From positions 360,001 through 392,000 of the forward strand of contig JBAZVE010000001.1 in NCBI GenBank assembly GCA_041661045.1: 32,000 nucleotides of DNA, given 5' to 3'. Each line of letters starts with the position of its first letter. The first letter of the stretch is position 1. Origin of the DNA: Candidatus Saccharimonadota bacterium (lineage in GTDB: Bacteria > Patescibacteriota > Gracilibacteria > UBA1369 > 2-02-FULL-48-14). The notes below the pieces were generated by a model. It searched no databases and was not told the DNA's origin. It saw nothing but the letters and a program-made list of their open reading frames with translations. The translations under genes and the position numbers were made by a program. Below, in pieces: positions 4,974 through 32,000 of the stretch.

Positions 4974-5744
4974 TTAGACCCTTAGCGAGCAACGGAACGC
5001 GCCATCATCATCGTAAGATTCAGCATCCTGCGGTTCCACGCGAGCCCCCCCATAGTAGTGATCACCAAAGAGCGCACTGCCAAAGACTAGTCCGCCGTAT
5101 TTTGGATTTGGGTTTTCTGAATCAAGCCATACCCAATCATTTTCAGTGTCCATCTCAATTCCCATATCGATCCCAAGAACCTCATAGCGCTCAGGACGAG
5201 TCAATTTTACACCACCACCCATCGCTTCTGCTCTTGCAACTGCTTGAGCATAAGTAACTCTTCTACGAGAGTCTGGCAGTTTTGCTGCTAACTCATCAAA
5301 AATGAAATCTTCTCCTTCGACTCCAGTCACATCAGGAGCACCTCCTGAATCGTCCATTCGTTTCAAGGCATCAAGTTTTACTGGGTTTGCGCTTAATTTC
5401 GCTTCAACTTTTGACCACGCTACCGCATCGTGACAGGCAAGATGGTGTTCATTCTCTTCGTAACGCGCTCTAAGAGTTCCCATAAAAGCAACTTGCTCGG
5501 GAGAAAGGTCAGAGGAACCTTCTACTTCTCTTGGTAGACCATCAGAGTCTACTTCAATAAGATCAGCTACAGCTTGACGATCTCTCATTTCAGCAATTAC
5601 TCGCTTTAGAAGAGCCGTGCCTTCCACACCTAACTTCGCTTGTACCTCTGGATCATCAAGACCAGCATCCGTGGCATCAAGTACAGTTGGCGCAATAGGT
5701 ACTGCGGTGACATCATCGTTATCGGGACCTTTGGTGATTGCCAT
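4974..5744 (-). CDS. DUF4256-like protein with acidic N-terminal extension
   Basis: The C-terminal ~180 aa (LSPEQVAFMGTLRARYEEN...WSKVEAKLSANPVKLDALKRMDDSGGAPDVTGVEGEDFIF...GGLVFGSALFGDHYY...GAFRCSLRV) matches my recollection of the DUF4256 layout (...ERTGGEPDVVG...FRGSLRV). The assignment is from memory and was not searched. Confidence 0.5.
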   Translation of the reverse strand: MAITKGPDNDDVTAVPIAPTVLDATDAGLDDPEVQAKLGVEGTALLKRVIAEMRDRQAVADLIEVDSDGLPREVEGSSDLSPEQVAFMGTLRARYEENEHHLACHDAVAWSKVEAKLSANPVKLDALKRMDDSGGAPDVTGVEGEDFIFDELAAKLPDSRRRVTYAQAVARAEAMGGGVKLTRPERYEVLGIDMGIEMDTENDWVWLDSENPNPKYGGLVFGSALFGDHYYGGARVEPQDAESYDDDGAFRCSLRV

Positions 5745-7395: not shown

Positions 7396-8140
7396 TATCG
7401 TAGGCATCAAATATTTCGGGCCTGACGGCGAGCCAGATGGCTGCGTTTCCAAAAACATGCATAAGCACTTTGCCCTGCTTGACCCATTTTTCCAAGGTCT
7501 CCACTGAGGCATTTTGATATCTTGGATCTTCGATTGGCACGGCTTGGATCTTTGAATACATCAGCTTTCCGCTTCTTTTGGAGTGTTCAAGTCTCACTAT
7601 ATAGTAATCGGCACTAGGGAGAGCTTTGACCTTTTCTCTCAGGATCGCGAGGGCTTTGGTTTTTGGGTCTTCAAGTGCTTCGCATGCAAGCCCTGTAGCT
7701 TGCATTATTTGGCTTTGATGGGCTGCTTGGTAAGCCCTGAGTGTTTGTGACCCTTGATTCTCTGCTATTCGTTCAAGGACGGGATATGCCTGGGAAGGCA
7801 GAAAGTTCTTCAAATGAGTGAGCAAAATTACGAAGTAGGACTGCGCACTCATCGGTTGGCAGAGATCTGGAAGAAGGGCTTCAAAGTCTGCCCGACTCGT
7901 GTTTGCAACGAGGAACTTTTTATTTTCCTGAATCGCAATATCTGCTGTGGATACGCTGTCCGGGTTTTTCCTCTCTATTTCTATGTGCCCCTGCAAGCGG
8001 GCAACCAATTTTAGGATTAAAACCCTTAACGGCTTCCTTATTTCTTCTTTTCTAAGCTCCTCTGGGCTTTCATCGGGGTCCAGCTTTCGTGCTAATGGGA
8101 CATCTTTCATTTGGACGCTTCTATCGTTTAAAGTGGTCAT
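7367..8140 (-). CDS. Hypothetical protein (~257 aa)
   Basis: The ORF is 7367..8182. The first ATG would abut the tRNA at 8185, so the start is placed at MTTLNDRS (8140). The 3' end overlaps the DUF2000 gene by 29 nt (convergent). No family recognised. Confidence 0.5.
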   Translation of the reverse strand: MTTLNDRSVQMKDVPLARKLDPDESPEELRKEEIRKPLRVLILKLVARLQGHIEIERKNPDSVSTADIAIQENKKFLVANTSRADFEALLPDLCQPMSAQSYFVILLTHLKNFLPSQAYPVLERIAENQGSQTLRAYQAAHQSQIMQATGLACEALEDPKTKALAILREKVKALPSADYYIVRLEHSKRSGKLMYSKIQAVPIEDPRYQNASVETLEKWVKQGKVLMHVFGNAAIWLAVRPEIFDAYDISGTKKTSR

Positions 8141-8829: not shown

Positions 8830-9462
8830 TCAGCGCCTCCCGCAACCACTGTTATAATTTAGGCTTAGGGATACTACTCCTGAAGGAAGATGAGTAATAA
8901 TTGGAGCACAAACCTCTGCCTTCAGAAGATCCGTTAAGCGATGCCGAAAAGGGACAGTGACTCCTCCATCAAGGGCTTCAGCATTTATATAATAGACGCG
9001 GCCATCAGTAGCTCTTACAGGGATGAAACGGCCGTCAAATGCAGGCCTGTGATCCGGCGATCGGACTTCCACTTGTAAAGGGCCATGTATTGCATCGGGT
9101 GCTCTACCATGAAGCAGAGTTAGGGCGGTGAGCACTCCTTGGTCAGAGTAATCAGTAGCAAACGATGATTTCAATGCGACCAATCTTGTGGTTAAACTTG
9201 GAAAATTCCCCCATTTAAGTTGGTCAATTTGTAATCCTCCGTCTGGCAATCGGGAACGAGGGTGGCCGCCGTCAAAGCCGTGGTATGTTAGCTGCCGCTT
9301 AAAGTCGCCTGTGTGCTCACTGAGATGATGAGCCATGCCCAAATCACCCTCGTCTACTCTTGGCCGAAATGAAGTTCCTTCTATCTCAGTGATACTAGGC
9401 TTTATGTTTTTATCCCAATACGCATCCCCTTCTTCTGAGAAATTTGTGGGCTGTTTTGTCAT
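8830..9462 (-). CDS. Hypothetical protein (210 aa)
   Basis: Clean ORF with ATG start. No recognisable family or signal peptide. Confidence 0.5.
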   Translation of the reverse strand: MTKQPTNFSEEGDAYWDKNIKPSITEIEGTSFRPRVDEGDLGMAHHLSEHTGDFKRQLTYHGFDGGHPRSRLPDGGLQIDQLKWGNFPSLTTRLVALKSSFATDYSDQGVLTALTLLHGRAPDAIHGPLQVEVRSPDHRPAFDGRFIPVRATDGRVYYINAEALDGGVTVPFRHRLTDLLKAEVCAPIITHLPSGVVSLSLNYNSGCGRR

Positions 9463-9635
9463 ATGGTCAATAAAAATTGATTAAGCTTGTATTCTGAATA
9501 AAATTTTAAAAAAGTCAAGAACCGGTGCGCACGCACAGATTTTACTTCGATTTTTGGCTTAAGAAAGCCATTTATATTTTGGAAGTGGCTCGTCGAGCGC
9601 TGTTTACGACTACCCACCAGTAAAGACTAATAGTT

Positions 9636-10622
9636 TTAACCCCTTAGCCAGAGTACCGCACCACAATGATCTAACCGACGGAAAGCACTGCTCTTGAGGA
9701 CGACCGTCCCACGATTCTCAGGATGGAACGCCACGGTGTACACCATGGACTCATCATCTATATCCTCATCACATTCAAATATCGCACTGCGCCTCCCATC
9801 TCCATCTGGACTCATAACATAGTGACCACCCGTGACTACTTCTGAAGCGGCAACAAGACCTTTCTTCTCGAGCTCGCCGGGGTAGACGGGTGCATGATAG
9901 CCCGCTGCCTTTACTGCTTGAATAATTTCGGCGGGTTTTGCCCATCGTCCATCAGGAAGTGCCTTTGCTTCTGCATAAGGCAAGAGACGAAGTTCGCCTT
10001 TATCGGACGATCCATCTATCCACATTTTAGTCCATCTTGCACTCATAATGTCTTGGCTGCGTTGTCTGATTGCTAACTCGCCATTTTCATACACACCCAC
10101 TAAACATGCACCTCCCGGCATAGCTGCTGCTTTTTTAAGAAGTTCAGCACCCTTAGCAAGTAATCTTACTTTAAGAGTCTCCCATTTTTGGCCAGCTGTT
10201 TTGTCTAGTCTAAGTGCACGGGTATAATCTGTGGGTCCTGCGTTTTCATCGATAAGAACAATCCCTCGGTCAAAATCCCGTCTTAGTTCTTCAAGACAAG
10301 CGGCCAACCGTTCATCAAGTCGTTCTTCACTCCCTTCGACATCTCCACTCGCCTCTGCACTTACTCCCTCGTCAGTATCGGCATCTTGGGATTCTCCCCC
10401 ATCAGGACCATCCATATCTACTCCTGAAGTAGTGTGTCCCACATGTTGAGATTGCAGCTGAATGGACTCTATAAATGCTCTTACCGCTGGGTCAGTTACC
10501 TCTATACCATTCAGGGCCTCTTGCAACCTTTGCATGTCCGCACCTAGTTTTTCAGGGTCGGTACTGGCCGGCAAGCCGCCAACTAAGTCTGCGTCTGTGC
10601 CTGGTTTTATTCTGTTAGTCAT
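9636..10622 (-). CDS. Hypothetical protein (328 aa): acidic N-terminal half, C-terminal half distantly DUF4256-like
   Basis: The N-terminus is rich in D/E/G (GVDMDGPDGGESQDADTDEGVSAEASGDVEGSEE). The C-terminal segments AAAMPGGACLVGVYENGELAI ... AVKAAGYHAPVYPGELEKKGLV ... GAVLWLRG parallel the 4974..5744 protein. A TTGCAT-17 nt-TACTAT promoter lies upstream on the minus strand. Confidence 0.5.
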   Translation of the reverse strand: MTNRIKPGTDADLVGGLPASTDPEKLGADMQRLQEALNGIEVTDPAVRAFIESIQLQSQHVGHTTSGVDMDGPDGGESQDADTDEGVSAEASGDVEGSEERLDERLAACLEELRRDFDRGIVLIDENAGPTDYTRALRLDKTAGQKWETLKVRLLAKGAELLKKAAAMPGGACLVGVYENGELAIRQRSQDIMSARWTKMWIDGSSDKGELRLLPYAEAKALPDGRWAKPAEIIQAVKAAGYHAPVYPGELEKKGLVAASEVVTGGHYVMSPDGDGRRSAIFECDEDIDDESMVYTVAFHPENRGTVVLKSSAFRRLDHCGAVLWLRG

Positions 10623-26958: not shown

Positions 26959-27001
26959 TACTGTGCTAAAGTTCCCCAGTCTCACCCTTAACTTTTTTGT
27001 C

Positions 27002-27523
27002 ATGAAAACGATGTTTACCCTGTTCCTTGGACTGGTGTTTTTGGCTGGGTGTAGTCTTCAAACGGCTTCGGCGGATCGGGCGGCGATCGAGGAAATGGTG
27101 CGGGATCATGCGTTGGCGTGGGAAACGGGGGATAGGGAGCTCTTGGATTCACTGCTGCATGAAGACAGCGTGTTTGCGTATCCGGGGCGGCGCTTGAATA
27201 AAGCGGAAACTTTGGAGGATCTCGACTATTTTGCGGCGAATTTTGTGGACACCAAGGTCTACATCAACACAATTATTGTGGAGGGAAATCAGGTGGCGGT
27301 GGAATGGCAGTTCGCTACCACCAGCACCGGGAGTGGGGCGCGGCAAGTGGTGAGTGATGCCATTATTGCGGAGGTGAAGGATGGCCAATTCATCGTGTGG
27401 AAAGAATATTTGGACGGGCGCGTGAAGACGCTCCAAGAGAGTGGCGAGCTTTATTTTGAAGAAGGCGAGGAGCCCTTTCCTTGGCCGATGAAAACAGATC
27501 TTTATGGCACGGTGAAGCAGTGA
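27002..27523 (+). CDS. SnoaL-like / NTF2-fold lipoprotein
   Basis: MKTMFTLFLGLVFLAGCS shows a signal peptide plus lipobox. AAIEEMVRDHALAWETGDRELLDSLLHEDSVFAYPG...VEGNQVAVEWQF...IVWKEYLD is typical of SnoaL/DUF4440-like domains. Confidence 0.65.
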   Translation: MKTMFTLFLGLVFLAGCSLQTASADRAAIEEMVRDHALAWETGDRELLDSLLHEDSVFAYPGRRLNKAETLEDLDYFAANFVDTKVYINTIIVEGNQVAVEWQFATTSTGSGARQVVSDAIIAEVKDGQFIVWKEYLDGRVKTLQESGELYFEEGEEPFPWPMKTDLYGTVKQ

Positions 27524-27543: not shown

Positions 27544-27619
27544 GCCATCTTAGCTCAGTTGGTAGAGCGGCGGTATCGTAAACCGCAGGTCACCGGTTCA
27601 ATTCCGGTAGATGGCTCCA
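27544..27619 (+). tRNA. tRNA-Thr (anticodon CGU), CCA encoded
   Basis: GCCATCT acceptor, TAGCTCAGTTGGTAGAGC D-arm, GCGGT-ATCGTAA-ACCGC anticodon arm, GGTTCAATTCC T-loop region, and AGATGGC-T-CCA. Confidence 0.9.
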
Positions 27620-27685: not shown

Positions 27686-27761
27686 GCCACTTTAGCTCAG
27701 CTGGTAGAGCAACGGTTTTGTAAACCGTGGGTCGTCGGTTCGATTCCGACAAGTGGCTCCA
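27686..27761 (+). tRNA. tRNA-Thr (anticodon UGU), CCA encoded
   Basis: GCCACTT acceptor, TAGCTCAGCTGGTAGAGC D-arm, ACGGT-TTTGTAA-ACCGT anticodon arm, GGTTCGATTCC T-loop region, and AAGTGGC-T-CCA. Confidence 0.9.
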
Positions 27762-27779
27762 TTTTTGGTTTGAACTTAT

Positions 27780-28199
27780 TTAACTCTGGGTTCCCTTAAC
27801 TGCTGCCTGCACACCCTCTGTAACGAGCGCGGTTTCATTGGATACAGGTCCTTTTGGCTTACTATAATCCATAATCTTCACCATAAGGTTGGCTACTAAT
27901 TCAGTTCTCACAGCATCTCCTGTTTCTTTCGGAGCCCTATCTAGGATTAACCTTAACAAGTCTGGTAATTCTTTACCTAAACGTTCTCTATCCATTTCGT
28001 AGAGAGCCATTATTTCCATTGCCAAATCTGATAAGGCCTTTTCTACAGCAACCGTGAGAGGATCATTTTTCTTCAAATCTCCTCCAGTTCTCCTTCTGGT
28101 TTCGTAGTTCCCCTTCTTTTGATTGGCCAGAGCCACCGCTAGACCATCTACCAAAGTACTAACATTCCTGTATCGTTCATTTACATTTAAGGGCTCCAT
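27780..28199 (-). CDS. Hypothetical protein (139 aa), cassette ORF adjacent to tRNA-Thr
   Basis: ATG ORF, predicted helical. The stop codon lies 19 nt from the tRNA-Thr 3' end. No family recognised. Confidence 0.5.
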   Translation of the reverse strand: MEPLNVNERYRNVSTLVDGLAVALANQKKGNYETRRRTGGDLKKNDPLTVAVEKALSDLAMEIMALYEMDRERLGKELPDLLRLILDRAPKETGDAVRTELVANLMVKIMDYSKPKGPVSNETALVTEGVQAAVKGTQS

Positions 28200-28310
28200 G
28201 GTTTAGTTGTTAATTTGTATGTTCATTGTACCACTTATTTGAAATAATGCAAGTATTGGGCGAGTAATTTACCACCTTATCCATCAAAGGAATATCCCTT
28301 ACCACTGCGG

Positions 28311-28395
28311 CAAAACCAGAAAATAAACATAAAATACGTTGGAAACAGTGTGCTTCCATTTTTTGGATGCCCAGGGGAGATGAAAGCAATTTTAT
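28311..28395 (+). repeat. Intergenic cassette repeat, copy A (most divergent, ~85% to the others)
   Basis: CAAAACCAGAAAATAAACATAAAATACGTTGGAAACAGTGTGCTTCCATTTTTTGGATGCCCAGGGGAGATGAAAGCAATTTTAT. Its right end covers the stop codon of the 423-aa gene. Confidence 0.85.
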
Positions 28396-29663
28396 CCTTG
28401 GTATTTTTCTGGTGTCCACCCCACTTGAGCTTGCAGTGCTCTTACTGTGCCTTCCCAGGAAAGGCGTCTACCCATTGGATCCAATAGCAGTGTTCTTCCG
28501 GCTATAGCAGTGAGTGGCAAGAGGGTCCGTGGATTTTGTCCATACTCCCAGTCTGGGCGTACACCAATGACGCGAGTGGATCCTTCTGGGGAGAAACGGG
28601 ATAAAGTCAGAAAACCATTTCCAGCTTGATCCGGGTGGACTAAAACACGACCTCCCTCTCTTTCAAGCTCCCATTCACCCACTTCACCATAGTCTCCTTC
28701 ATTGCTCGCACGGATTTCACTTTGCCGGCGGAGTAAAGCGGCGGTACGCAAATCCACTGCTTCATAAGGCAACATTGAGCTGAAAAAGAGCCGCTGAGCC
28801 GCATCTCCTCTCCATTCAGGAGCCAAGAATGGCCCATTTCTCCAGGCTTCCTGAAGATGGATGTCTGGCATACACTTAAAAAGCTCTCTTGCAATGGAAA
28901 CATGATCTTGTGGGCGTTGGTTGGAAACCAATAGGCCAATCAAAGCCCTGTGTGCACTGAGAACACTTTCACCCATTATGTGACCTCCCCAGTTTTTTGT
29001 TAGTTCCTTCAGCAAAAGCGCGTATTCAGCTAACCCTTGACCTAAATCTGCGTGGGTTTCATCAGAGTCTGTTGAGGGTAAGGTGGAGTCGTCACGCAAT
29101 CGAGACCACGCAAGCTCTCCTGCTGGGCCTACCCACGCATTGCTTACGTCGTGGCCACGGTGTGGGAGGGGCAAAACAGTAATGCGCCAACCCAAAAGCT
29201 GATTTCTTATGGACCTGTCCGCATCATTAAGATCCAATTGATCCATGTCATTCATGTCTCTTGATACAGCTGCATCGAGGTGACCTTTGGCTATAGCACT
29301 GGTGGCAGCTGCGCGTGTCTGGGGAGAGACAGTAGTCGCTTCCGTCTTGGCCCAAAGATTGTCGTCTCCTTCTACTACTAAGGGTCTTGTTAAGCATTTT
29401 TGGAGTCCCTCCATACTTATGACGGGGTCCATTACAATTCGAAAGGTCTCACTAAATTCTGTTCCGAGAACCTCGTCAGCAGTGTGTGAATCAGCCATGG
29501 CCACTGCGACTGCACTCAAATAGGGTGGCCTCACATTCCCCTCATCGAAAACTGCACGGGCCGCCCTATAAGCTCCAGTTCTATCCAAGCGGTCCTTTAC
29601 TTCAGGAATATCCATTAAGTGTATATAAGGCTTTATTCTAACCTTTTGAGTTCCTTGTTGCAA
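28392..29663 (-). CDS. Hypothetical protein (up to 423 aa), cassette ORF
   Basis: Long ORF. The track start is TTG at 29663, and the first ATG (MDIPEVKD) is at 29615. No family recognised. Confidence 0.55.
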   Translation of the reverse strand: MQQGTQKVRIKPYIHLMDIPEVKDRLDRTGAYRAARAVFDEGNVRPPYLSAVAVAMADSHTADEVLGTEFSETFRIVMDPVISMEGLQKCLTRPLVVEGDDNLWAKTEATTVSPQTRAAATSAIAKGHLDAAVSRDMNDMDQLDLNDADRSIRNQLLGWRITVLPLPHRGHDVSNAWVGPAGELAWSRLRDDSTLPSTDSDETHADLGQGLAEYALLLKELTKNWGGHIMGESVLSAHRALIGLLVSNQRPQDHVSIARELFKCMPDIHLQEAWRNGPFLAPEWRGDAAQRLFFSSMLPYEAVDLRTAALLRRQSEIRASNEGDYGEVGEWELEREGGRVLVHPDQAGNGFLTLSRFSPEGSTRVIGVRPDWEYGQNPRTLLPLTAIAGRTLLLDPMGRRLSWEGTVRALQAQVGWTPEKYQG

Positions 29664-29695
29664 CTTTATGAGAATTTACCCTGTAGTCCTACGGA

Positions 29696-29779
29696 AAAAC
29701 CCGAATACAAACATAAAATAAGTTGAAAACATTGTGCTTCCATTTTTGGGTTGTCCAGGGGAGATAAAAGAGATTTTAC
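29696..29779 (+). repeat. Intergenic cassette repeat, copy B
   Basis: AAAAACCCGAATACAAACATAAAATAAGTTGAAAACATTGTGCTTCCATTTTTGGGTTGTCCAGGGGAGATAAAAGAGATTTTA. The 60-nt core differs from copy D at one position. Confidence 0.9.
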
Positions 29780-29846: not shown

Positions 29847-30131
29847 CTAAGACTGGCGCTGTCTTTCTAAAAATTGTCTCATGACCACTGCTCTTGTACC
29901 TTTCAGGGTATCGACAAATTCGTGTTCAACATGAATGCCACTTTGTGGGGTATGTGGACTTAGCTCTTGGCGGCTCCCTATGTACAACCATTCACCTCCT
30001 CGGGTTGTATTCAATGTCAGCGCTCCAAATAATTTCAGTCGAACTATATTTCTTACCACGTGACCCTCTAAATTGGGGATTTTAGTTTTCTGGCCCTTTA
30101 TTCGCTTTAAGTACGGCGTAACTTGCCTCAA
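29847..30131 (-). CDS. Hypothetical ORF (94 aa, TTG start only), possibly the 3' half of a frameshifted gene
   Basis: There is no ATG start. The frame opens only after a TAG near 30160. It overlaps the upstream ORF by 50 nt and is reachable from it by a +1 shift at a T5 run (plus-strand A5 at 30130..30134). Confidence 0.35.
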   Translation of the reverse strand: MRQVTPYLKRIKGQKTKIPNLEGHVVRNIVRLKLFGALTLNTTRGGEWLYIGSRQELSPHTPQSGIHVEHEFVDTLKGTRAVVMRQFLERQRQS

Positions 30132-30384
30132 AAATTGCTTCAGCTGGGGCTCTAAGTCTGTCTATTTGATTCAAGAAATCTGGTTCAAGAATTTGGAATC
30201 CATCTGGCGTAAGATTACCGTTCAACAACATTCCTACTGCAGCACGCTTTGCTTGAATAGGAAATGCATTCCAGTTTGCAGGTAGTTGCGCACCTTCTCC
30301 CTTTGCTAGATCAGCTAGTCCTTTTGCGTCTAGATGTTCAACTAGATCGCTTGGCATTAGTGGGCCTGATGGACCTTCATCCAT
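30082..30384 (-). CDS. Hypothetical protein (100 aa), cassette ORF, possibly the 5' half of a split gene
   Basis: ATG ORF (MDEGPSGPLMPSDLVEHLD...). Its 3' end overlaps ORF 29847..30131. Confidence 0.45.
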   Translation of the reverse strand: MDEGPSGPLMPSDLVEHLDAKGLADLAKGEGAQLPANWNAFPIQAKRAAVGMLLNGNLTPDGFQILEPDFLNQIDRLRAPAEAIFEASYAVLKANKGPEN

Positions 30385-30485
30385 AGTATTGTGGGAAGAT
30401 TATTATCTGCTTATTCTACCATCAAACATAGTTTCTTCCAATATCTTTCTTGGTATGCATAAAGGGAAAGCCCCTCTCCTGGCGA

Positions 30486-30539
30486 CAAAACCCGAACACG
30501 AACATAAAATAAGTTGAAAGCATTGTGCTTCCATTTTTG
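30486..30539 (+). repeat. Intergenic cassette repeat, copy C (right part missing)
   Basis: CAAAACCCGAACACGAACATAAAATAAGTTGAAAGCATTGTGCTTCCATTTTTG. It is identical to copy D over the 40 nt GAACATAAAAT...CCATTTTTG and diverges after that. Confidence 0.85.
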
Positions 30540-30731
30540 TTTGAGGCATTTGTTCATTGGCTAGGCGTATTGGTATTCCTTACTACTCTTGGCTTCACCT
30601 ACACCCACCCATACGTACAGCTAGGGGTCGATTTGGGATGCCCTGCCCCTGCGATTATAGGCGCACATAACATAACTTGTAGTATCTTTAATGGTTTGAT
30701 ATAGTGCATCCTTAAACTTAAAAATGTTCTT

Positions 30732-31469
30732 ATGAGACCTGGCGAATCACAAACTTATGTTGACCAACTGACCCAAGGGGAACTTCGTGATTACCCAGGA
30801 ATGTTGCGGCGAGTACTCAGCCTTGTGGAGAAACCTCTGTCAACATTATTGGAAGCAAGTGCAGAAGTTAAAGCTGCAAACACGACAGTACAAAGCGCAC
30901 TTGATTGCTTAAGTTTAGATGACCGTGCAACATTTGATACAAAGATTGTGCCACCTGAGAAGATGGGGAGATTTTCTGTCCAGTATAGAAACCCGATGAA
31001 AATTTCTGCTAGAGCAGGTGATTCATTGGCTCTGCGAGCTGCTGTCCTTGCTTCCATTGATGAGATTGTTGCAGTCTTTCACCAGAGACGAGACGGAGTC
31101 TTGGCGCATGCTAGGTTTCAAGGAGAAGATCAAAAAGATACCCATGGACACACGGTCATCGCGGCACCGTTTCTTTTGTTGGATGTTGGTGGCCAAAATG
31201 GCTCTTTCCCACTTGAACTCGTACAAGCCTCGACACCCTTACATGTACAAACGCTTCCAGCACAATCCCATTTTGATAGAAGGTTTGCTGAAATGTCCTT
31301 CAGTCTTGATCGTTCACGTAATCCTAGCGCTACTGTACCTAAATCCTTCCTTGAGGGGGTCCGGGGGAGTGACAAACATGCGATGCCTCATATGCGTCGT
31401 ACTGATGGAAACGTTTTTGAACTGGCGCGCAATCTACTTTCTCGACTAGGTGGTGAAGTCATTGAATGA
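30732..31469 (+). CDS. Hypothetical protein (245 aa), the only plus-strand ORF in the cassette region
   Basis: ATG ORF bounded by repeat copies C and D. No family recognised. Confidence 0.5.
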   Translation: MRPGESQTYVDQLTQGELRDYPGMLRRVLSLVEKPLSTLLEASAEVKAANTTVQSALDCLSLDDRATFDTKIVPPEKMGRFSVQYRNPMKISARAGDSLALRAAVLASIDEIVAVFHQRRDGVLAHARFQGEDQKDTHGHTVIAAPFLLLDVGGQNGSFPLELVQASTPLHVQTLPAQSHFDRRFAEMSFSLDRSRNPSATVPKSFLEGVRGSDKHAMPHMRRTDGNVFELARNLLSRLGGEVIE

Positions 31470-31497
31470 GGTTTAGTGTAGCTTTAGCTTATTCGTG

Positions 31498-31567
31498 AAC
31501 ATAAAATAAGTTGAAAGCATTGTGCTTCCATTTTTGGGTTGTCCAGGGGAGATAAAATGGGTTTTAT
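31498..31567 (+). repeat. Intergenic cassette repeat, copy D
   Basis: GAACATAAAATAAGTTGAAAGCATTGTGCTTCCATTTTTGGGTTGTCCAGGGGAGATAAAATGGGTTTTAT. Its right end covers the stop codon (31564..31566) of the next minus-strand ORF. Confidence 0.9.
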
Positions 31568-32000
31568 TCCTCTTCTTGCTCAAGTTTTGAGAAGTAATGC
31601 TTCAGTTTTGGTTGAAGGAAGGCATCAATTTGAGCTTCGAATTGGGCGACACACATGGAGAGATGGTTTTTAAGCTTGTTCAGTCGCCATCGCTGGATTG
31701 CGCCTTTCTCTTCAGAGGGAGAGCCGACGAGGCTGCTTATATTTCCCGCTAAACTGAAGCATGTTTTTGCAAGACTTGGGGCATCTTCTCCTGCAAAATA
31801 TGGAGACTGAATTAGTGCTTGCAATGAGGAGTGTGAATGTCGGGCTAGCTCAATATTATTAAATGCTAGTAAACCTTCGATTTCTGACAAAGTAACATTG
31901 CAGATGCTGCTGAGCTCCATCGCCTGTTTGACAGTGGCGTTGAGTTCATCCAAAGATTCGAGCAGAAAACTGCTTTTTATTGCATCCTCTAAGTCCCTCA
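31564..32000 (-). CDS. Hypothetical helical protein, N-terminus probably beyond the window
   Basis: The track ORF starts at TTG 31953. Hand translation shows the frame stays open to position 31998 (…RDLEDAIKSSFLLESLDELNATV…), so the gene likely continues upstream. Confidence 0.5.
   Translation of the reverse strand, partial: RDLEDAIKSSFLLESLDELNATVKQAMELSSICNVTLSEIEGLLAFNNIELARHSHSSLQALIQSPYFAGEDAPSLAKTCFSLAGNISSLVGSPSEEKGAIQRWRLNKLKNHLSMCVAQFEAQIDAFLQPKLKHYFSKLEQEEE

Follow-up and report, generated by a model that had tools for sequence, protein, structure and literature searches.

A tRNA-Thr-linked array of small, integrase-free cassettes with putative att-type borders in a Peribacteria-like genome

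Behind a pair of tRNA-Thr genes, the window (the whole 32-kb stretch of DNA analysed here) holds what its sequence indicates is a series of small cassettes, at least five in number, that lack an integrase, carry ORFan cargo and have att-type borders. We consider it probable, at roughly 70%, that the repeats between the cassettes are att-type junctions produced by serial site-specific integration at the 3′ end of tRNA-Thr(UGU). An intact target tRNA stands at one end of the array, as it does in tRNA-3′-end elements and arrays of cis-mobilizable elements (CIMEs), and the gene is identical in the related loci L002, L004, L005, L009/L014, L017, L020 and L024.

Repeats and cassettes in the window

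A repeat finder reported four direct repeats of ~90 nt, R1 (28305-28394), R2 (29689-29778), R3 (30480-30569) and R4 (31477-31566), which a profile search places at 28282-28363, 29654-29747, 30445-30538 and 31440-31535. Each begins with a left arm, L, of ~75 nt (consensus ...CAAAACCCGAACACAAACATAAAATAAGTTGAAAACATT), followed by a core, GTGCTTCCATTTTT; a right part, Rt, which reads GGGTTGTCCAGGGGAGATAAAA-N4-TTTTAT, is present in R1, R2 and R4 only. L ends as GTG(GC/CT)TCCATTTTT, a copy of the last bases of the tRNA together with a T-run. R3 retains only L and the core and departs from the other repeats directly after CCATTTTTG, a feature missed by the earlier note, which places a breakpoint at the core. 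The features of the array are as follows.

27544..27619, plus strand: tRNA-Thr(CGU), first of the tRNA-Thr pair (ARAGORN; Rfam tRNA, 68.4 bits)
27686..27761, plus strand: tRNA-Thr(UGU), the intact target, which anchors the array at its proximal end (ARAGORN; Rfam, 72.5 bits)
27753..27768, plus strand: attL-like core GTGGCTCCATTTTTGG, the tRNA 3′ end with the T-run
27766..27781, minus strand: left end of cassette 1, where TGGTTTGAACTTATTT, the reverse complement of AAATAAGTTCAAACCA, copies the repeat arm in inverted orientation
27780..28199, minus strand: cargo of cassette 1, a 139-aa ORF with no family match
28282..28363, plus strand: R1, L element and core GTGCTTCCATTTTT, of the CCAGAA subtype and nearest to the L002 copy; its right part Rt, GGATGCCCAGGGGAGATGAAAGCAATTTTA, extends to 28394
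28392..29615, minus strand: cargo of cassette 2, a 407-aa ORFan (423 aa from a TTG start at 29663)
29654..29747, plus strand: R2, L element and core, with Rt after it to 29778
29847..30384, minus strand: cargo of cassette 3, two overlapping ORFs of 94 and 100 aa
30445..30538, plus strand: R3, L element and core only, no Rt
30732..31469, plus strand (opposite to the other cargo): cargo of cassette 4, a 245-aa ORF with no family match
31440..31535, plus strand: R4, L element (well conserved from ~31497) and core, with Rt after it to 31566
31564..31953, minus strand: cargo of cassette 5, a 129-aa ORF; the array runs past the end of the window

The repeats of the window mark off units of 0.8-1.4 kb; the cassettes as a whole, relatives included, are 0.6-1.4 kb in size with one to three genes each. 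G+C is 0.43-0.47 in the array versus 0.50-0.54 upstream. Pfam, PHROG and PADLOC matched none of the cassette ORFs, a set of 1.84 billion representatives contained no real homologue of the 407-aa protein, and the cassette proteins map solely to Logan contigs of 1-2 kb. An AlphaFold model of the 245-aa protein, with a pLDDT of 36, was set aside. The two ORFs of cassette 3 overlap by ~50 nt in different frames and may be one frameshifted gene. The ORFs of cassettes 2 and 5 end exactly at the repeat boundary, since their stop codons (28392-28394 and 31564-31566) both fall in the conserved TTTTA of Rt. Those ORFs of the 32-kb window that were scanned against Pfam revealed no recombinase domain, and there is no recombinase gene in any L-bounded cassette that we have seen.

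Several other identities for the repeat were considered and set aside. A known RNA family or a conserved fold was rejected because Rfam reported tRNAs alone, with no tRNA or other RNA-family match on the repeats, and because the copies yielded no consensus structure; single-strand folds were mostly no better than those of shuffled sequences, with z-scores (−0.07 to −3.4) that were inconsistent between copies. A promoter of the cassette genes was rejected because the repeats share one orientation whereas the cargo lies on both strands, and because consensus scans were unconvincing. The sequence of L itself is highly conserved across copies.

The tRNA junction and its inverted motif

Positions 27753-27761 are the final 9 nt of tRNA-Thr(UGU), CCA included. 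The earlier note had pointed out that the junction GTGGCTCCATTTTTGGTTTG (27753-27772) matches the repeat core GTGCTTCCATTTTTGGGTTG in the same orientation, and our comparison confirms this at 17 of 20 positions, with three mismatches. On both strands of the 32-kb window it is the sole match outside the repeats with at most three mismatches, where 0.00 were expected; the same search recovered the three closest repeats. In all four copies the window core is identical to the tRNA at seven of nine bases and has the identical T-run. We assessed significance with dinucleotide shuffles, in which the 49-nt junction or the 40-nt flank was compared with the 90-nt repeat on both strands; the direct match was equalled in 8 of 5,000.

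The inverted second motif described in the flank also proved to be real, and slightly longer than claimed. Read in inverted orientation, TGGTTTGAACTTATTT matches AAATAAGTTGAAARCA of R2, R3 and R4 at 14 of 16 positions, a score reached in 24 of 5,000 shuffles, compared with 65 of 5,000 for the 12/13 motif of the earlier note; against R1 there are three mismatches in 17. When the inverted copy of the AAATAAGTTGAAA motif in the flank was tested by a local-alignment shuffle, the window version was reached in 4 of 1,000. Direct and inverted matches are, from the window alone, modestly but clearly beyond chance, which upholds the judgement that chance was unlikely. Given T-rich sequences and a match that, in the window by itself, is short (17/20), a chance AT-rich resemblance or a decayed duplicate of the tRNA gene deserves a hearing, but the shuffle tests speak against it, as does the exact tRNA end in the L copies of three other genomes (below). 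Outside the core, moreover, L has no significant similarity to any tRNA body, for which reason a decayed tRNA copy was rejected as its origin, and the repeats draw no Rfam tRNA match. We regard this explanation as scarcely credible.

The inverted motif recurs in one related genome. The tRNA of L005 continues into TTTTTTG-TTTTGAACTTATTTTAT, and the 19-mer TGTTTTGAACTTATTTTAT (5662-5680), which starts from this TG, is an 18/19 inverted copy of the L arm ATAAAATAAGTTGAAAACA; its score was reached in 0 of 1,000 shuffles. The motif of L017 is borderline (41 of 1,000), and the same shuffle test found nothing in cassette-free genomes, which leaves the inverted end significant solely in cassette 1 of the window and cassette 1 of L005. 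The cargo of these two tRNA-proximal cassettes is unrelated, and because the motif occupies the same position in both, we interpret it as a boundary feature and not as chance. It is absent from three of the five left ends in the window. Apart from cassette 1, three left ends start with Rt (GGGTTGTCCAGGGGAGATAAAA, which is unsymmetric with L) and one with TTTGAGGCATTTG, so that the cassettes have a uniform right arm but varied left ends. Genomic islands have been described with a comparably lopsided mosaic of att halves (PMC9580842).

Inverted ends could also point to a MITE-type, target-specific transposon, with terminal inverted repeats 5′-TGTTTTGAAC...GTTGAAAACA-3′, a transposase elsewhere and the tRNA end as a long target-site duplication. 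Cassette 1 of L005 looks the part, with 19-nt inverted ends (18/19) that read TG...CA and a flanking 14-nt direct repeat, and cassette 1 of the window has weaker inverted ends. However, the inverted end occurs in only two or three cassettes, and in all copies from the window, L001, L002 and L029 the supposed duplication departs from the tRNA at two bases, which are always the same, so that this core variant travels with the element and is not copied from the target. L is, in addition, found at this one locus only and in a single orientation. Inverted repeats on every copy, a short exact duplication and occurrence at many loci, by which DDE transposons and MITEs are recognized, are not what we find, and a 14-bp target duplication is atypical for DDE transposons. 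We therefore hold a transposon origin to be improbable.

The L-core in related genomes

A scan with the L-core pattern yielded two contigs from Peregrinibacteria/Peribacteria metagenome-assembled genomes (L001 and L002), a scan with the tRNA-Thr(UGU) 3′ end yielded further contigs with the identical tRNA (L004, L005 and L009), and homologues of murB led to syntenic loci (L014-L021 and L024-L030). A first metagenome scan with the GTGCTTCCA variant of the core found nothing, and viral contigs gave no match to the L-core or to the tRNA end. The common gene order is MurA, tRNA-Tyr, tRNA-Thr(CGU), tRNA-Thr(UGU), a variable segment and murB. The segment between tRNA-Thr(UGU) and murB varies in at least ten Peribacteria-like genomes and is different in every genome. 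Relatives with cassettes do carry the repeat: besides the window, six loci or groups of loci have the L-core, always in plus orientation with respect to the tRNA and at the right end of unrelated cargo.

L001, 420-509: L-core
L002, 2106-2201: L-core
L005, 6750-6845: L-core
L009/L014/L015, at 8094-8188 of L014: L-core
L017-19, at 5986-6075 of L017: L-core
L029, 1701-1783: L-core

The cores of L005, L014 and L017 reproduce the tRNA 3′ end exactly, as GTGGCTCCATTTT, over 13-14 nt, which supports the proposal that the repeats are att-type sites tied to the 3′ end of tRNA-Thr. A direct repeat of the tRNA 3′ end thus lies at the distal border of each unit, another property of tRNA-3′-end elements and CIME arrays. 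The earlier note had also taken the tRNA junction to be the terminal site of the array, and it is the proximal end in every genome seen. Five different cargos begin at one identical position of the tRNA. The cargo of L005 comprises a GNAT acetyltransferase with ParE/Phd, then Phd with a RelE/HigB-like toxin, and a third, bare copy of the core lies at 7489, past the second cassette.

Across genomes L is better conserved than the MurB protein (66-84% identical), and its subtypes are mixed. The L copies of the window are not one another's nearest relatives, since R1 and R2 are nearest to L002 and R3 is nearest to L001 and L005; duplication in situ is therefore unlikely.

In L029, a palindrome at ~2700-2750, AAAAATGGAGCCA-CACAA-TGGCTCCATTTTT, consists of two cores head to head, with a degenerate 21-nt tRNA-Thr 3′-end fragment, ATTCCGACAAGTGTCCTCATT, ahead of it. 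An inversion, or a different type of element, may have left this structure behind.

Empty sites and precise insertions

The earlier note had raised the prospect that cassette-free relatives keep the same flank after the tRNA, which would make it native sequence. They do not: in L020/L021, L024, L027 and L016 the same tRNA is present, L is absent, and TTTGAACTTATTT is missing after the tRNA. A distance of 19-37 nt separates the tRNA of L027 and L020 from the stop codon of a convergent metallophosphoesterase gene, beyond which lies murB. L014 has a homologous metallophosphoesterase gene (56% identity), and its 167-aa cassette with the L-core sits exactly between the CCATTTT of the tRNA and the stop codon of that gene. 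L014 is thus the arrangement of L020 and L027 plus a precise insertion of cassette and L-core, and relatives offer unoccupied sites whose borders fall exactly at the repeats, as is seen with tRNA-3′-end elements and CIME arrays. In L017 the L-core abuts murB, 16 nt ahead of its ATG. The sequence after the L-core of L001, TTTTTAATGGAGCC, matches the native tRNA flank of the cassette-free L020 and L024, TTTTT(T)AATGG(T/A)G(C/A)C, and so has the composition expected of an attR, that is, element arm plus native flank.

The cassette-free sites have a structure of their own. In L020 (8873-8920) and L024 (9386-9430) the tRNA end, GGCTCCATTTTT, is followed by a near-inverse AATGG(A/T)G, which continues into a G+C-rich stem and then a second GCTCCATTTT. 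This may be a hairpin that acts as a terminator, or else a core site of palindromic form.

A real rival takes up the first of these options. The L-core may have been a terminator or insulator once located behind the tRNA, with cassettes swapped and stacked by RecA-dependent homologous recombination, for instance following the uptake of DNA; the tRNA and the 75-115-nt repeats would serve as anchors, and no dedicated recombinase would be involved. In its favour, the vicinity yielded no recombinase, the length of the repeats suffices for RecA, and the repeat scores as a weak or modest hairpin, followed on the minus strand by a T-rich tail and on the plus strand by TTTTT. Because such a hairpin also follows the tRNA in cassette-free relatives, where its 3′ arm repeats GCTCCATTTT, a terminator-like role combined with homologous spread has to be taken seriously. 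Yet the tRNA-proximal junction has no L and shares only 9-14 nt with the repeats, and five cargos begin exactly there; all junctions break right after CCATTT(TT) and none elsewhere along L. A terminator, moreover, has no need of 75 nt that are more conserved than MurB, and the hairpin is poor in the copies with the exact tRNA core. We consider spread by homology unlikely, although less so than a transposon.

A possible route of integration

According to the integration model that we favour, each cassette would bring, at its right end, L and a core that mimics the tRNA end. Recombination of this L-core with the tRNA end, or with an existing junction, would insert the cassette directly after the CCA of the tRNA, and the product would read tRNA-core-[cassette-L-core]n-native flank. 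Some cassettes (cassette 1 of the window and cassette 1 of L005) also have an inverted L arm at their left end, so that a circular intermediate would present a dyad-symmetric site of ~54 bp, with two 19-nt arms and a 16-nt spacer containing the tRNA end. Because the cassettes encode no recombinase, the enzyme, probably a serine or a tyrosine integrase, would act in trans or have been lost.

When the ends of L005 cassette 1 are joined, they give a 54-bp site with 19-nt inverted arms (18/19) and a 16-nt spacer, TTGTGGCTCCATTTTT. The centre of this reconstructed site, between T and C, corresponds to tRNA positions 73/74, in agreement with the crossover zone mapped below; its inner 8 nt are unsymmetric, and most cassettes lack the second arm. 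The attP of large serine recombinases is a dyad of ~50 bp around a central non-palindromic dinucleotide, to which the joined 54-bp site, as a candidate dyad, can be compared. The heterogeneous left ends of the window, three of five with Rt, fit a simple attP dyad poorly, and the two differences in nine between the window core and the tRNA count against the integration model, as does the fact that neither circular forms nor excision products came to light.

Those two differences also bear on where the exchange would take place. Copies in the window, L001, L002 and L029 read GTGCTTCCA where the tRNA reads GTGGCTCCA, and the differing bases correspond to acceptor-stem positions 71-72; if entered into the tRNA, they would be expected to break its pairing with the 5′ end, GCCAC. 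As the copies differ at these bases while the tRNA is intact, the crossover would lie 3′ of position 72, inside TCCATTT. This stretch, which comprises the discriminator base, CCA and the T-run, is the sole one common to nearly all junctions, which points to the same zone. We infer TCCATTT as the probable crossover zone, and it fits either the 6-8-bp overlap of a tyrosine recombinase or the central dinucleotide of a serine integrase.

Recombinases do occur near tRNA genes in related genomes. In L005, a large serine recombinase of 609 aa is encoded 1.2 kb ahead of the tRNA pair, on its upstream side; it has one relative only among 5.8 billion proteins. As a general enzyme for the cassettes it was rejected, given this two-member family and no homologue in the window. 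In L012, which belongs to a different lineage with the same tRNA 3′ end, the reading frame of a 572-aa phage-type serine integrase (1216-2940; phrog_95, E = 1.8e-92) abuts and overlaps the 3′ end of tRNA-Thr(UGU). In L029, a Peribacteria relative that has an L-core as well, an integrase at 8889-10605 overlaps the 3′ end of tRNA-Pro(UGG). The latter is 36% identical to the integrase of L012 and adjoins a GP3_package gene, which suggests a prophage-like element. These two placements indicate that serine integrases target tRNA ends in this clade; as a source of the cassette recombinase they are only a lead.

L005 also differs in its tRNA-Tyr (630-714), which is inverted and lies 4.7 kb from tRNA-Thr(CGU) (5457). 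Between these two tRNA genes lie the serine recombinase, an ORF of 67 aa and a PNP_UDP_1 phosphorylase, and the interval may be an insertion or an inversion linked to the recombinase.

Neighbouring tRNA genes

In the window, an exact 16-nt direct repeat of the 3′ end of tRNA-Ser(UGA) (1415-1504), CCCTCTCTCTCCGCCA, lies at 1595-1610, 90 nt downstream, and looks like another att-type footprint around a short remnant. A SnoaL-like ORF (26963-27523) lies between tRNA-Tyr and tRNA-Thr(CGU), a gap of only 4-29 nt in L004, L020 and L024. Other genes occupy this slot and the space between the tRNA-Thr genes in L014, L017, L002 and L020. For the insertions after tRNA-Tyr and tRNA-Thr(CGU), we found no direct repeats except a 3′ fragment of tRNA-Thr(CGU) in L001. 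This 18-nt 3′-end fragment, CTGGTAGATGGCTCCATTTT, lies at 661-682 of L001, 150 nt past the L-core, and is preceded by AAGTTGAACAAAGTG, which resembles AAGTTGAAAACATTG of L; the similarity hints at a sister att family for tRNA-Thr(CGU).

Comparison with known systems

In the Streptococcus ICESt1 family, CIMEs are known to accrete in tandem at the 3′ ends of tRNA or other genes (reviewed in PMC5704250). Like those CIMEs, the cassettes are integrase-free units with attL- and attR-like borders, arranged in tandem beside an intact target, with gene-3′-end repeats and composite internal junctions (PMC5704250). They differ in their size (0.6-1.4 kb), in having no conjugation genes and in their Peribacteria-like CPR host, and no related element with both an integrase and an L site was seen here.

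The ssrA islands of Dehalococcoides match the pattern of the array especially well. About half of them have no integration module and are read as CIMEs, and the integrase of the system is a large serine recombinase adjoining attL (PMC3146451), a position that resembles those of the integrases in L012 and L029. They too are arranged in tandem behind a small RNA gene, and their short 3′-end repeat is preceded by a conserved non-target motif, the analogue of L (PMC3146451). By contrast, the ssrA islands are 10-30 kb long, many have DsiB/DsiA and their target is tmRNA; the conserved arm is 15 nt there and ~75 nt here, where an integration module is absent (PMC3146451).

Prochlorococcus tycheposons share integration at tRNA genes in a streamlined genome, with older elements pushed outward, and their remnants resemble the array in that partial tRNA repeats and degraded, cargo-only units build up the island (bioRxiv 10.1101/2020.12.28.424599). 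The integrases of tycheposons belong to the tyrosine recombinases, with a minority of large serine recombinases (bioRxiv 10.1101/2020.12.28.424599). The hallmark integrase and replication genes of tycheposons are absent here (bioRxiv 10.1101/2020.12.28.424599); the cassette ORFs, with no match in Pfam, PHROG or PADLOC, offer neither an integrase nor the replication or packaging genes that would define such an element. Tycheposon repeats are partial tRNAs of ~40 nt, whereas those of the array combine a 9-14-nt tRNA end with a long non-tRNA arm.

Integrons offer a further parallel, in mostly single-gene cassettes whose site lies almost entirely at one end, in a fixed proximal entry point and in cargo that includes toxin-antitoxin pairs and ORFans. 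Unlike integrons, the array has no intI and no attI/Pc platform, its site is conserved in sequence and not in fold, its cargo has mixed orientation, and its proximal site is a tRNA 3′ end. An integron was rejected as an identification because the Pfam scan of the window ORFs showed no intI and the repeats have no attC-like structure. More tentatively, and with considerable doubt, we suggest an integron-like but non-integron platform of Peribacteria, in which the 3′ end of tRNA-Thr(UGU) is the entry site for cassettes of 0.6-1.4 kb with a tRNA-mimic arm of ~75 nt, and a recombinase encoded elsewhere, perhaps one of the serine integrases of the clade, shuffles ORFan and toxin-antitoxin cassettes between genomes.

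Implications for gene gain in Peribacteria-like bacteria

CPR bacteria have tiny genomes, and how they gain genes is little understood. The array is a known kind of island-building on an exceptionally small scale; no integrase is in view, and a conserved arm of ~75 nt is shared across Peribacteria genomes. No account of the tRNA-Thr locus turned up in open-access text, be it the Peribacteria genome paper or literature on CPR islands. At least seven related genomes have one tRNA end as their common docking point for unrelated, single-gene cargos that have the same 75-nt arm, and the locus supplies a defined pair of DNA sites with which the responsible recombinase can be sought. If the cassettes are mere remnants, the locus would be an ordinary tRNA-linked island on an unusually small scale. 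Active shuffling by a recombinase acting in trans, if true, would raise its interest, and if the cassettes are still mobile, they would constitute a compact and tractable system of gene flow for uncultivated bacteria.
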